Source: a virus (Duplodnaviria > Heunggongvirae > Uroviricota > Caudoviricetes). From it: DNA of 22,642 nucleotides. A program made the position numbers and the translations under genes. Under the pieces are notes generated by a model that was not told the origin of the DNA, made no database searches, and was given only the letters and a program-made list of their open reading frames with translations. How positions within the stretch are numbered: the stretch's first letter is position 1; every line of letters starts with the position of its first letter. The stretch lies in IMG/VR virus record IMGVR_UViG_2778261067_000001, one strand, 5' to 3'. Positions 1-18,287 of this stretch are shown here, one piece after another.

Positions 1-2777
<2,777 letters not shown>

Positions 2778-14891: not shown

Positions 14892-15103
14892 CAGAACCTC
14901 GCCAGCCGGTACCCGGGATGCCCCCGTCGTCGTGTAATCAGAGCCGCAAGGCGGCGCTCCCACTCCTGCCGTCCCTGCCGGATCTCAGATAAGTTTTCCA
15001 TGGTCATCTGCTGACCATTAAAGGTGACGGATTTTCCGTCCAGCACCGCCATTTCAGCTTCCGTATAACGCTGAATCATGGCTTCGATATCATTCTGGTT
15101 CAT
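14891..15103 (-). CDS. W: Head-tail connector / head completion protein (gpW-like)
   Basis: 70-aa ORF MNQNDIEAMIQRYTEAEMAVLDGKSVTFNGQQMTMENLSEI...RRRGHPGYRLARF; C-terminal RRRG motif and size match lambda gpW; ATG at 15103 overlaps the terminase stop (ATGA) and follows GGAGG. Confidence 0.7.
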   Translation of the reverse strand: MNQNDIEAMIQRYTEAEMAVLDGKSVTFNGQQMTMENLSEIRQGRQEWERRLAALITRRRGHPGYRLARF

Positions 15104-17199
15104 AACCATCCTCCGGAAGTCAGCCAGGGGTTAACATCGTCAGTTACTGTTTTCTTCCGTTTTTGTTTTTTAACAGGCGTGGATACCGGTTCCGGTGAGG
15201 GTGACGGTTCGGTACTGTCCGGGACACACTCCAGCCAGGTTTCCCGGCTCGCCCACTCCGGTGCATCCGGCCAGCGGATCTTTTCGTATCCATGCAGAAT
15301 GACCAGAGCCTCGGCATACACCATCAGGTCAAAAGCTTCGTTGGCACCGCGACCCGGCTTACTCCATTTCCCGTCACTGCTCCGCTCTTCATACGTCAAT
15401 TCGTCGTAAAACCAGCTCCCCAGCCAGTCAGGGAAATGCACATAGCCGGGACCTGGCGAGTCACGCCATAACGCGTTATTCACCCGGTCTTTCAGTGCAT
15501 CCGTCTGAAGAAGCCAGAGCGGCACATCACCTGCGGCCTGCGCCCGTCGGCCCGTTCGTCCGGTGTTATCAGGGAATGTACGGGTGATCAGTTTTGCGCG
15601 CCGGATGCTGTCGCCCTTAAACAGGTAAATACGTTTACCAAGGCCATCACGACGGCAACGACGCCAGAATTTATAGGCATTATCAGTGACCCCGTCTTCA
15701 CCGCCAGAGTCCACCGCCATTGCCATCAGTCGCATTTGTTGAGAAGGATCGGAGGCCAGCGGCCAGCTTTTATGAAAAACATCCGTCAGCAGGACATCCC
15801 AGTCTTCCGGATAGCTGGCCGGATCAATTCGCTGGCTCTCCCCGTCGCAGTCACTGCGCAATGACTGCGTGATATTGTAACGATCAATAATCCAGCGTTC
15901 GCCACGACTGCCATAGCCCGTTACCTGAACCACAAAACGGCGATGACGTCCCGCCTGCACATCCACTGTCGCCACAAGGAAATTAACGCCATCCGGCACA
16001 CTGCAGGAAGGAACTGGCTCTGCCCGCTGCTCAAGCAGTTCACTTTTTCGTTGCTCCATGCTGGCACGAGGAAGATAAGGCAATCCCCAGTCGGTGTTGA
16101 TAACCGCCCTGAGTGTTTCTTCGCTTCCTGTCGCTTCATACTCCTGTTCTGCAGTCAGTAATTTGTAAACCAGTTGCGCCCAGGTCTGATACGCAGCAGC
16201 TGGCCCTTCCATCCAGAAACTGGCGATACGGGAGCGGCGCGGTTCACCGGAAACGTTGCCGTTACGATCAATGACCTGACCTTCACGCAACCAGACTCCT
16301 GCACTATTGAGCTCACGCTTTTTCTCCGCAGTGATAATGCCGCTGCAGTGCGGGCAAAGTAGATACGCCGCCTCACTGGCTTTAAAGGGATCCGGTTCAT
16401 TACGGTAGCCGGTCATGGCATCCATAGCTGGCTGAAAATATTCACCGCAGTGCGGACATGGCCAGTACCAGCGGCGGCGGTCACCACGATTGTAAAGGGA
16501 AAGAATACCAGTCGTCGGTGGCGCTTCATGAGGCGACTTACGTCGCCATTTGCTGTCGCAGATGTCACGTCCCGGCGAGCTCTCCACCAGAGTCATCCCG
16601 GCGGACATAAATGTGGTGGTACGTTTTGAGGCCAGGGAGAAACCATCACCCTCGCTGTCGATATTCTCCGGAAAACGGTCGTAATCGGTTAAGGCGACAA
16701 ACCGGTAATCCGACGACGACATAATGTTGACCGAGGGCCAACCAATTTTAAGGAACGAGCCATCCCTGAACGTCTTATCATGGACATTATTGTCGTTACG
16801 ACGTGGACTCATTCTTTTCTTTACCGCCGCACTGCTTCTGAACGTTCTGTCGAGGCGCTTTTTAGAATGCTCGCGGGCCTTATCTTCGGTCATCTGCACA
16901 ACGAGCATGTCCGAAGGATCGCAAACGATGGTATAGACAATCCATCCATCGATCAGACCAATGGTCTTCCCTGTTCGCGCAGGACCAACAAAAATCACCG
17001 CATCGTATTCACGCGATGCCAGGCAGTTCATGGGCTCAATGATGTAGGGTGTCAGTTCAGGATCCCATGGCACCGAGTTACCAGCCCCCTTGGGAACACG
17101 CATGAATTTTTTAACAGCCTCCGAAATCGGCATGCGACGTGGTGGGGAAAATCCTGCCGATATGTCCCTTCCCAAATTTCGGGCTGATGAAAAACCCAT
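15100..17199 (-). CDS. A: Terminase large subunit (GpA family, cos-type)
   Basis: 699-aa ORF; ATG at 17199 preceded by AGGAGG with ~4-nt spacer; P-loop-like VGPARTGKT; Cys motifs WPCPHCGEY/LLCPHCSG similar to the lambda gpA ...ACPHCGEE... region. Confidence 0.9.
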   Translation of the reverse strand: MGFSSARNLGRDISAGFSPPRRMPISEAVKKFMRVPKGAGNSVPWDPELTPYIIEPMNCLASREYDAVIFVGPARTGKTIGLIDGWIVYTIVCDPSDMLVVQMTEDKAREHSKKRLDRTFRSSAAVKKRMSPRRNDNNVHDKTFRDGSFLKIGWPSVNIMSSSDYRFVALTDYDRFPENIDSEGDGFSLASKRTTTFMSAGMTLVESSPGRDICDSKWRRKSPHEAPPTTGILSLYNRGDRRRWYWPCPHCGEYFQPAMDAMTGYRNEPDPFKASEAAYLLCPHCSGIITAEKKRELNSAGVWLREGQVIDRNGNVSGEPRRSRIASFWMEGPAAAYQTWAQLVYKLLTAEQEYEATGSEETLRAVINTDWGLPYLPRASMEQRKSELLEQRAEPVPSCSVPDGVNFLVATVDVQAGRHRRFVVQVTGYGSRGERWIIDRYNITQSLRSDCDGESQRIDPASYPEDWDVLLTDVFHKSWPLASDPSQQMRLMAMAVDSGGEDGVTDNAYKFWRRCRRDGLGKRIYLFKGDSIRRAKLITRTFPDNTGRTGRRAQAAGDVPLWLLQTDALKDRVNNALWRDSPGPGYVHFPDWLGSWFYDELTYEERSSDGKWSKPGRGANEAFDLMVYAEALVILHGYEKIRWPDAPEWASRETWLECVPDSTEPSPSPEPVSTPVKKQKRKKTVTDDVNPWLTSGGWL

Positions 17200-17207
17200 T
17201 ATTCCTC

Positions 17208-17735
17208 CTAGAGACTCTCTCCTTCCTCATCAGGAATTAATTCAGCAGCACAAGCCTCGTAGGATTTTTCCTGAAGAGTGTATCGCAGGTCATCAATGGC
17301 CTGCTGTACAACGCCGACGGCCTGAGGAGTCAGAGCGCAATCGCGTTCAAGAACATCCGGAATTGTCTCCAGAACCTGGACGACAGCCTTTCTCATGGAC
17401 GAATAGACGATGACTACTTCATCAACTGGGATGAGTTTTCGCTGCTCCTTTTCCAGCTTGATCCTTTCATTTTCAGACTGGTACCAGTCCTTTCTCTCTT
17501 TCGGCTCCATACGGGATGGATCATGAACAGAGTCTGCTGCCTCATGCTTCACACTAAACAGGGCGGGCCCGACATGCTGCAGGGCGTAAACGGGGTTCCC
17601 CCTGACAGTCGCAGCCACAGGAGTGTTGGCCGCGAGGAGCCGTTTTTTTACTGTGTCCCGGTGAAGCCCAAAGGCCTCGGCGATTTTAAAAACACTCCAG
17701 TAATAAGCATCACCGATCCCGCTCACATTTGACAT
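17208..17735 (-). CDS. nu1: Terminase small subunit (Nu1-like, winged helix-turn-helix N-terminus)
   Basis: ORF directly upstream of the large terminase; MSNVSGIGDAYYWSVFKIAEAFGLHRDTVKKRLL... is a DNA-binding HTH-like N-terminus; ATG at 17735 has a GGAG ~7 nt upstream (alternative ATG at 17747). Confidence 0.8.
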   Translation of the reverse strand: MSNVSGIGDAYYWSVFKIAEAFGLHRDTVKKRLLAANTPVAATVRGNPVYALQHVGPALFSVKHEAADSVHDPSRMEPKERKDWYQSENERIKLEKEQRKLIPVDEVVIVYSSMRKAVVQVLETIPDVLERDCALTPQAVGVVQQAIDDLRYTLQEKSYEACAAELIPDEEGESL

Positions 17736-17747
17736 AAGCAACTCCAT

Positions 17748-17985
17748 CTGGCAGGTGAAAATCAGGTTTATTTATATATTTCAATTAATTGCAAACTGGT
17801 CTAATGACAGGAAGAAAAAAATATTGTACAGGTGAAAAGAGAAATAACTTTTAATTATCAATAAATTACCAAACATGCTGCCGCCGCCATGGAAATGCAA
17901 AAACTAGCCTTTTTCCGCGACGCTCCCGCCCCGTGGCAGGGGCCCCCACCGGGAGGACCCGACAGCCTGACAGCCTGACAGCCGT
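17748..17985. promoter_or_regulatory. cos: Candidate cos region (cosB / cosN / cosQ-like), ~180 bp upstream of the terminase small subunit
   Basis: Minus-strand sequence ACGGGGCGGGAGCGTCGCGG (plus coordinates ~17915-17935) resembles lambda cosN ACGGGGCGGCGACCTCGCGGG; AT-rich stretch between it and Nu1; two copies of CAGGTGAAAA (17752-17761 and 17829-17838); tandem GACAGCCT repeats at 17961-17983; spacing to the Nu1 start is similar to lambda. Confidence 0.5.
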
Positions 17986-18119
17986 GATGAGCATCTGATA
18001 CAGCGCTTTACATAATGGCATAGGAATAATTCAGAAGGACATCACAGCATGCCCACACAAATTAGTGTGAGTGTCCTGTTTCTTCCTACGCACAGGACTG
18101 ACGAGCATGAGGGGAAAAT

Positions 18120-18287
18120 ATGCGAACCATAAATGCCTCATCTTCAGCAATGCAACCGGCATCCGAACAGGACGATATTGTAAATTCACCTAATTACGAG
18201 GACATTGCAGTAGTTGAATTGCAGCTCTGTATTAGCCTGACAGTGACAGAATGCGATATTGACTCTGTCACAGGTGAAATAGTTTGA
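18120..18287 (+). CDS. Hypothetical small acidic protein, 55 aa (below the ORF-track size threshold)
   Basis: ATG at 18120 preceded by GAGGGG; translation MRTINASSSAMQPASEQDDIVNSPNYEDIAVVELQLCISLTVTECDIDSVTGEIV; no homology recognised; could be non-coding. Confidence 0.25.
   Translation: MRTINASSSAMQPASEQDDIVNSPNYEDIAVVELQLCISLTVTECDIDSVTGEIV

Follow-up and report, generated by a model that had tools for sequence, protein, structure and literature searches.

How does the prophage of IMG/VR virus record IMGVR_UViG_2778261067_000001 generate the ends of its packaged DNA? The question is raised by the region upstream of its terminase genes, in a stretch of 22,642 nucleotides that is referred to as the window throughout, for which a candidate cohesive-end site (cos) had been predicted from the sequence. 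The motifs of that original prediction were all found again at the coordinates it gave. Comparison with lambda, with public phage records and with related prophages indicates that positions 17752-17960, read on the minus strand, very probably form a cohesive-end cos of lambda layout (cosQ, cosN, I2 and a cosB with a site for integration host factor, IHF), belonging to a lambdoid Escherichia coli prophage of the Tritos/cdtI type. The evidence consists of sequence comparison, namely homology and conserved positions, record ends that fall at the cohesive-end junction, and the families and predicted fold of the terminase proteins. The feature is real but ordinary, and current understanding is left unchallenged by it.

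Along the minus strand, cosQ (17954-17960) was followed by cosN (17915-17936), an I2-like block, an IHF consensus (17856-17868) and an AT-rich cosB that reached up to the small terminase gene, terS. Signed positions such as +97 are cohesive-end coordinates in this minus-strand reading. The G+C fraction was 0.28 at 17748-17880 and 0.68 at 17881-17985, compared with 0.52 in the whole window.

cosN, cosQ and the predicted cohesive end

The minus strand reads ACGGGGCGGGAGCGTCGCGG at 17934..17915, a sequence that had been described as similar to lambda cosN with a different cohesive end. The complete cosN (CCACG-GGGCGGGAGCGT-CGCGG; 17915..17936, minus strand) was identical to that of lambda at 16 of 22 bases; its ACG and CGCGG flanks were the same as in lambda, and CG dinucleotides flanked both nick positions. 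Two-fold symmetry was present at 12 of the 22 positions; counted in this way, lambda has 10 of 22. Around the junction, the window reads ...GTCGGGTCCTCCCGGTGGGGGCCCCTGCCACG, then GGGCGGGAGCGT, then CGCGGAAAAAGGCTAGTTTTTGCATTTCCATGG, whereas lambda ends in ...ACGGGTCCTTTCCGGTGATCCGACAGGTTACG and begins with GGGCGGCGACCTCGCGGGTTTTCGCTATTTATGAAAATTTTCCGG. From this match, nicks are expected between 17932 and 17931 on the minus strand and between 17920 and 17919 on the plus strand, and comparison with lambda, Gifsy-1 and LLS predicts a 12-nt 5' cohesive end, GGGCGGGAGCGT, at 17920..17931 (minus strand).

When GGGCGGGAGCGT was compared with the lambda end GGGCGGCGACCT, 8 of the 12 positions were identical, positions 1-6 being the same and differences falling at 7, 8, 9 and 11. 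The Gifsy-1 end GGGCGGCAGCGT, read directly from its sequence, differed only at position 7. Among lambda-like phages bp 7-12 vary freely, whereas cosQ and the CG flanks do not, and natural variation of the cohesive end has been described at positions 9 and 12 in N15 and at 8, 9 and 11 in Gifsy-1 (PMC4669245). Judged by this comparison, GGGCGGGAGCGT falls within the known natural variation of cohesive ends. A literature search with the exact 12-mer returned unrelated papers only.

The packaging-termination signal cosQ was recognised as the heptamer GGGTCCT at 17954..17960 (minus strand), identical to lambda 48473-48479. It occupies -29..-23 (17960..17954) here and -30..-24 in lambda, so that it lies 1 nt nearer to cosN. 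A GC-rich segment had been suggested as cosQ, and cosQ does lie inside it; the signal itself is confined to the conserved lambda heptamer and does not extend over the whole segment. According to the Feiss laboratory, cosQ is highly conserved across lambda-like phages (PMC4669245).

Ends of public phage records

To locate the junction in known phages, the region was compared by megablast with GenBank phage genomes. The linear record of Tritos (OV696610) stopped at window position 17932 (...CCTGCCACG; ...CCACG) and also opened at the cohesive-end junction, and that of cdtI (AB285204) opened at window position 17931 (GGGCGGGAGCGTCGCGGAAAAAGG..., GGGCGGGAGCGTCGCGG...). Because these record ends fall exactly at the predicted nick, they validate the lambda match of cosN, and together with the lambda-like subsites they bear out the earlier view of this sequence as a lambda-type cos. 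The first 199 nt of the Tritos record, from cosN to the terS ATG, were 100% identical to the window, whereas cdtI showed 4 differences between cosN and terS. In both records, terS was found approximately 185-197 nt from position 1. As the cdtI and Tritos genomes are cut at cos, a cos of this type is effectively already in the public records; neither cos nor its subsites are annotated in the records of cdtI, Tritos and HannyBb, and a description of the subsites was not found in the literature either.

Further record ends were found among more distant phages. In LLS, whose TerS is 41% identical, the homologous 12-mer bears the annotation of a 5' extended single-strand cohesive site, GGGCGGCGCGCT. 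The record of Hafnia phage yong2 opens right after the 12-mer, and an mEp460-like record opens 5 nt before it.

Conservation of cos in the family and in E. coli

A family scan limited to one genome per species returned 80 loci, in many of which the pattern CG-(12-14 nt)-CGCGG was present approximately 150-220 bp upstream of terS, preceded by GGGTCCT or the variant GGTACTCC and followed by the block GGCTAGTTTTTG.ATTT.CAT. Dozens of prophages with a TerS of the DUF1441 family and a gpA-type large terminase (TerL) had CG-12nt-CGCGG at this distance. Among the 56 non-identical family loci, 51 carried GGGTCCT (mostly at -26..-32) or GGTACTCC (-26..-30). Many family loci, e.g. L020-L030, had AAAGGTACTCC at the place of cosQ (-26..-30 from the cohesive end), which may be an alternative cosQ allele.

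Phages of the mEp460 type shared the cosQ-cosN sequence and the 12-mer GGGCGGGAGCGT with the window, in combination with a different cosB and TerS, whereas a different type of cosN was found in loci that share the cosB of the window and have a TerS 84-93% identical. As each occurs with differing partners, the cosQ-cosN and cosB-terS modules appear to reassort. The second cosN type, CACCG-AGGGGGCGAGGACA-CGCGG, has 14 nt between its CG flanks instead of 12 and was found approximately 190 nt upstream of terS in L011, L175, L183, L015, L026, L070 and L086. Its association with the same or a closely related cosB and TerS points to reassortment of cosQ-cosN against cosB-terS, possibly with a different overhang.

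With a 321-nt query spanning cos (window 17700-18020) and a threshold of at least 80% coverage, the cos region was detected in 778 of 5426 complete E. coli genomes (~14%). In a population sample of 81 copies with essentially identical TerS, representing 63 haplotypes, cosQ and the cosQ-to-cosN spacing were invariant and the 12-mer GGGCGGGAGCGT was present in all copies except one (80 of 81).

Two anomalous loci were noticed among the relatives. In the last ~220 nt of L006 (LR597641.1, mEp460_ev081), cosB is present as two direct copies of ~95 nt (GGCTAGTTTTTGAAATTTCATCCG...TTTTTTGT); misassembly of the genome ends is the probable cause, although the duplication could be genuine. L010 (JAGZPX010000007.1), a contig in a Veillonella parvula metagenome-assembled genome, carries this E. 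coli prophage region with 99% identical TerS, and its placement is probably a binning error.

The terminase proteins

The gene terS (17208..17735, minus strand) encodes a small terminase of 175 aa, counted from its second ATG, with a DUF1441 domain (PF07278, E = 1.7e-44) and a match to PHROG 141, labelled 'terminase small subunit'. The longest open reading frame (ORF) starts at the ATG at 17747 (MELLMSNV...), and the second ATG at 17735 (MSNV...) is preceded by GGAG 6 nt upstream. The start at 17735 is used by the homologues, RefSeq and the Tritos record, whereas the longer form is given in the cdtI record; 17735 is likely the true start. This ATG is at +197 in the window and at +196..+200 in every relative examined, compared with +191 for the Nu1 ATG of lambda. 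The adjacent terL (15100..17199, minus strand) was assigned through Pfam to the gpA family, with ATPase and endonuclease domains (GpA_ATPase, PF05876, E = 5e-81; GpA_nuclease, PF20454, E = 2.3e-86), and its product was 24% identical to lambda gpA over 627 residues (E = 7e-22).

The small terminase had been called Nu1, a name that cannot be kept, as the protein belongs to DUF1441 and has no significant sequence similarity to Nu1. A sequence search of TerS against solved structures gave no significant match, the weak hit being of MarR type (E = 0.04). In its AlphaFold model (predicted local distance difference test, pLDDT, 80), a helix-turn-helix with a beta-hairpin wing forms the N-terminus, and three long helices come after it. 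Therefore, TerS would use a Nu1-like DNA-reading head, though it is not in the Nu1 family by sequence.

Identity of TerS was approximately 100% in cdtI, Tritos and HannyBb, and 35-56% in Gifsy-2, Fels-1, mEp460, mEp043, mEp213 and VT1-Sakai as well as in phages of Providencia, Hafnia, Aeromonas and Vibrio.

The I2-like block, the R3 position and the predicted IHF site

Immediately after cosN, the block AAAAAGGCTAGTTTTTGCATTTCCAT (17889..17914, +18 to +43, minus strand) aligned with the lambda I2 sequence GGTTTTCGCTATTTATGAAAATTTTCC and was the most conserved single-copy block across the family. It is followed by a GC-rich, trinucleotide-periodic block, GGCGGCGGCAGCATG (17874..17888, +44 to +58, minus strand), at the position equivalent to R3. 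In lambda (bp 50-65) and N15 (bp 48-59) R3 is the critical site, and its spacing from cosN is also critical (PMC9026076, PMC4669245). The sequence at this position changed with the recognition helix of TerS, being GGCGGCGGCAGCATG with HRDTVKKRL, GGGACACCACCA with DRK.V, GCTGTCAGCAGCAGG with NRGTV and CATCA(C/T)CA with DRATV, and it was nearly invariant in the population sample. Among relatives (L007-L183), the trinucleotide-periodic block read CACCACCA, CAGCAGCAGG or CATCATCATCA.

An exact IHF consensus, TATCAATAAATTA (WATCAANNNNTTR), was found on the plus strand at 17856..17868 (+64 to +76), as the candidate equivalent of lambda I1. By chance, a match to the consensus was obtained in 105 of 3000 shuffles, a figure that refers to the window alone. 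An exact consensus was present at +62..+66, always on one strand, in 22 of the 56 non-identical family loci. The predicted site lies between the R3 and R2 positions, as in the complex cosB of lambda, 21, phi80, Gifsy-1 and Monarch.

Repeated elements in cosB

The plus-strand 10-mer CAGGTGAAAA, which had been proposed as a small-terminase site, was found at 17752-17761 and 17829-17838 and had no other exact copy in the 22.6-kb window. Read as TTTTCACCTG on the minus strand, the distal candidate element (17829..17838, +94 to +103) occupies an R2-like position and the proximal one (17752..17761, +171 to +180) an R1-like position, ending 16 nt before the likely terS ATG. A direct repeat of at least 10 nt was produced in the 183-bp AT-rich stretch by 122 of 3000 dinucleotide shuffles (~4%), so that by itself the repeat is weak evidence and its weight comes from the relatives.

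In relatives with ~55% identical TerS, a group comprising Providencia, Proteus, Morganella, Yersinia, Rahnella and Xenorhabdus, TCACCTG-type sites were found at +55 (inverted), +98 (inverted; CAGGTGA/GAGGTGA), +124 (direct) and +173 (direct). Most relatives with 53-100% identical TerS had TCACCTG at +173/+174. The window has exact cores at +97 and +174, both direct, and degenerate ones at +55 (CATGTTT) and +125 (TCATTAG); the cosB alignment placed a degenerate middle element, CTGTCATTAGACCAG (17796..17810, minus strand), at the position of the relatives' +124 site TGTCACCTC. When cosB was compared without bias with the rest of each locus in 37 loci, AGGTGA/TCACCT was the top enriched 6-mer, with 46 occurrences against 3.7 expected, and CACCTG was also enriched (35 against 3.0). 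The flanks of the sites differed between helix classes, with GGTGACA/TGTCACC in NRGTV, GGTGTCC/GGACAGG/GGACACC in DRK.V and TTTTCACCTG in the HRDTV class of the window. In the population sample, the proximal TTTTCACCTG copy was present in 79 of 81 copies.

As the CAGGTGAAAA copies stand at the conserved coordinates of the multi-site cosB of relatives (+97 and +174) and contain its most enriched core, the proposal that they are small-terminase sites is plausible. On this comparative basis, binding of the small terminase is the most likely role of both TTTTCACCTG copies, in R2-like and R1-like positions. A clean co-variation between the recognition helix and the two repeat sequences was sought and not obtained, due to a mismatch between L178 and L179, and only class-level trends were seen. 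Inside terS (17208-17747), the 10-mer did not occur even when one mismatch was allowed, and hence no rR2 of the N15 type was found; the only single-mismatch match to the 7-nt core TCACCTG in the gene was TCACCGG at +268.

Weighing of the interpretation and its alternatives

Several observations weigh against the interpretation given above. In addition to the sequence distance between TerS and Nu1, no experimental work on the binding sites of DUF1441 TerS proteins was found in the literature, the papers that mention DUF1441 being silent on such sites. The ends of the Tritos and cdtI records may follow the analogy with lambda and not experiment, as the Tritos paper contains no description of cos mapping (PMC9928086). 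The R3-like position, on which lambda and N15 critically depend, lacks a TCACCTG copy in the window, and the distal copy varies under an unchanged TerS, reading CAGCTG 11 times and TACCTG 9 times in the population sample. Despite a common recognition helix, L178 and L179 differ at both element positions. Finally, the 10-mer repeat alone has p ~0.04, and the co-variation of cosB with the TerS class could be plain linkage of adjacent DNA.

In a different assignment within a real cos, the TTTTCACCTG repeats would be accessory or irrelevant and the specificity site of TerS would be the sequence at +44..+60 (GGCGGCGGCAGCATGTT), a counterpart of R3 that anchors TerL for the bottom-strand nick. We consider this possible, though doubtful. 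The equivalent distance at which R3 is critical in lambda and N15 (PMC9026076, PMC4669245) speaks for it, as do the specificity of the block for the helix class of TerS and its near invariance in a population in which the distal repeat is variable. Nevertheless, the block and the two repeats have no clear sequence in common, so that one helix-turn-helix would have to read two sequences, and the +55 site of the NRG class holds a CAGGTGA core, which favours a single common motif whose +55 copy has degenerated here. The co-variation of the block with TerS may also be mere linkage.

A tentative proposal, slightly more doubtful than the previous one, is that DUF1441 TerS proteins use an undescribed cosB layout, in which E-box-like CA(C/G)CTG elements at +55, +98, +124 and +173 would be joined by IHF bending and, at the R3 position, by a class-specific block with trinucleotide periodicity. 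Of the elements, only the direct copies at +97 and +174 would survive in the window. The +44..58 block might then be contacted through a different face of TerS, or by TerL itself. If this were true, TerL would be anchored at cosN by a geometry unlike the inverted R3/R2 pair of lambda.

It seems unlikely that the two CAGGTGAAAA copies arose by chance as a repeat in the AT-rich DNA, or that they serve a role other than terminase binding, such as in terS translation or in the binding of a host protein. It is true that repeats of 10 nt or more arose in 4% of the shuffles, that the distal copy is polymorphic, that a third near-copy further upstream (discussed below) is demonstrably independent of the TerS type, and that the proximal element adjoins the Shine-Dalgarno sequence and is kept across recognition-helix classes. 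On the other hand, both copies match site coordinates that are conserved in the family, the motif occurs in several copies and is the top enriched cosB 6-mer, and lambda R1 is in the equivalent place relative to Nu1. No promoter-like, terminator-like or Rfam feature was found in the AT-rich tract or the cos region.

A relic cos from a defective prophage, never cut in its host, is very improbable. Many E. coli prophages are defective, some of the 778 genomes with the cos region carry variant or truncated forms of it, and terL is fragmented in the relative L183. Against this, Tritos has an identical sequence from cosN to terS and forms infectious virions and plaques (PMC9928086), and NZ_CP102244, an E. 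coli genome that matches the window perfectly over the whole 321-nt query, has intact ORFs for terS, terL, the portal and the protease/capsid. Headful (pac) packaging with a coincidental lambda-like motif can be dismissed almost entirely, since no evidence supporting it was found, TerL is of the gpA family, cosQ, cosN and I2 are kept at a fixed distance from terS across a large family, and the relative LLS has an annotated cohesive end.

Comparison with known cos systems

The lambda-layout cos favoured here resembles that of lambda in its identical cosQ heptamer, the conserved left half of cosN (GGGCGG), the similar I2 and the partial two-fold symmetry. The likeness extends to an IHF site after the R3 position, repeats at R2-like and R1-like distances, a small-terminase start ~190-197 nt from the end, a gpA-family TerL and a TerS with an N-terminal winged helix-turn-helix followed by helical oligomerisation regions. 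In contrast, the repeat of the window is TTTTCACCTG and not the 16-bp R sequence of lambda, its copies have the same orientation and no clear R3 copy, and TerS belongs to the Pfam family DUF1441 and not to Phage_Nu1. A complex cosB has three R copies, with R2 inverted relative to R3 and R1; in the window, two exact direct copies, at +97 and +174, and a degenerate element at +125 were observed, with no clear copy at +50..65.

Gifsy-1, which is counted among the lambda-like cos phages by the Feiss laboratory (PMC4669245), has a cohesive end identical to that of the window at 11 of 12 positions, the same cosQ and the same ...ACG and CGC flanks around it. It differs in its Nu1-type TerS, 21-like TerL and lambda-style cosB (PMC9026076), whereas the window combines a DUF1441 TerS with an unrelated cosB. 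N15, with a simple cosB made of a single R3 and a remote rR2 in gene 1, is also similar in having a lambda-like cosQ and cosN with a divergent cosB, and in where the critical site would be expected, at ~48-60 bp from the end (PMC4669245). Unlike N15, the window has two repeats and an IHF site in front of terS, and terS itself contains no 10-mer copy, either exact or with 1 mismatch.

With respect to phages of the same terminase class, cdtI, Tritos and HannyBb carry the same element as the window, with 100% identical TerS. Other DUF1441 phages (mEp460, mEp043/213, LLS, yong2, Gifsy-2, Fels-1 and VT1-Sakai) share the combination of a gpA-type TerL and a DUF1441 TerS, but their TerS is 35-42% identical and their elements are of the CATCAC/CATCATCAT type and not TCACCTG. 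About 150 nt upstream of its terS, Gifsy-2 (L008, DUF1441 TerS) has a cosN-like sequence, CCACGGGTGGCTTCGGGCTCGCGGG, that departs in spacing and internal sequence and is followed by the inverted pair TTCAGTGTCGAA / TTCGACACTGAA in place of TCACCTG elements; this cosN-like site was left aside, as no confident alignment could be made.

Flanking repeats and gene neighbourhood

A tandem repeat of GACAGCCT, with 2.9 copies, was detected by Tandem Repeats Finder at 17961..17983 (plus strand), adjoining cosQ. Its presence agrees with the original prediction, although it lies outside the conserved cos module. Among the sequences with the same TerS, 3, 2, 1 and 0 copies of GACAGCCT (GGCTGTC) were counted in 8, 7, 34 and 32 sequences, respectively, HannyBb has ~2 copies upstream of cosQ, and the sequence just upstream (5') of cosQ was unrelated in many haplotypes. 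Because of this copy number of 0-3 under an identical TerS and the mosaic junction upstream of cosQ, the repeat was rejected as a cos subsite and is regarded as slippage-prone junction sequence.

The near-copy CAGGTGAAAT at 18271-18280, which had been listed as a possible further element, is indeed present, but in a separate mosaic module. At the homologous place, within an otherwise conserved stretch, lambda has TTTAGTCTG. In exact-pattern scans of IMG/VR, the TTTCACCTG version was found upstream of terS in 15 loci of Nu1 type, 11 of mEp460 type and 25 of cdtI type. As it occurs upstream of all these terS types alike, this near-copy is unrelated to the DUF1441 TerS, and it was rejected as a remote TerS site. 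Over window 18270-18287, compared with lambda 47970-47990, a 3-nt cluster of differences (CAC here, AGT in lambda) was noticed in a near-identical stretch; the CAC change removes a TAA stop and lengthens a small plus-strand ORF at 18120-18287 (55 aa, phrog_4035, of unknown function). On the minus strand, an ORF of 51 aa at 17866-18021 spans cosQ and cosN; it is annotated as a hypothetical protein in HannyBb, has no family match and is probably spurious.

In the identical genome NZ_CP102244, RefSeq annotates holin, lysozyme and Rz-like genes, a cold-shock/moron cluster and a ybcW-like gene upstream of cos, and terS, terL, a W-like gene, the portal and a protease/capsid fusion downstream. This gene order is that of a normal lambdoid late operon, with cos between the lysis and the terminase genes. 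In the relative prophage L178, a gene with a Pfam hit to Acb2/Tad1-hairpin (the anti-CBASS/anti-Thoeris sponge family) was found at 369-617, between the lysis genes and cos.

Proposed mechanism and significance

By analogy with established lambda biology, from which the chemistry of the nicks, the 5' polarity of the overhangs and the DNA contacts of TerS and IHF are here extrapolated, the DUF1441 TerS would bind cosB of concatemeric DNA through its N-terminal winged helix-turn-helix, and IHF would bend the DNA at +64..+76. Assembly of TerS and IHF on cosB would place the gpA-family TerL on cosN, with the class-specific GC-rich block at +44..58 possibly taking the R3-like anchoring position. 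TerL would then nick the two strands 12 bp apart (17932/17931 and 17920/17919), leaving GGGCGGGAGCGT as 5' overhangs. Packaging is expected to proceed toward terS and terL, that is, to lower window coordinates, and to stop at the next cos, for which cosQ (GGGTCCT), cosN and I2 would be required.

For annotation, the value of this analysis lies in the exact genome ends, the packaging direction and the cos subsites that it gives for a prophage type present in ~14% of complete E. coli genomes, which includes the Cdt-I toxin-converting phage and the LF82 phage Tritos. The nearly unchanged cosQ, left half of cosN and I2, despite a TerL of 24% identity and a TerS from another sequence family, extend the rule that subsites contacted by the terminase are conserved while positions 7-12 of the cohesive end drift. 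For the DUF1441 small terminases, a class that is uncharacterised, the analysis also offers candidate binding sites in the form of a concrete map that can be tested.

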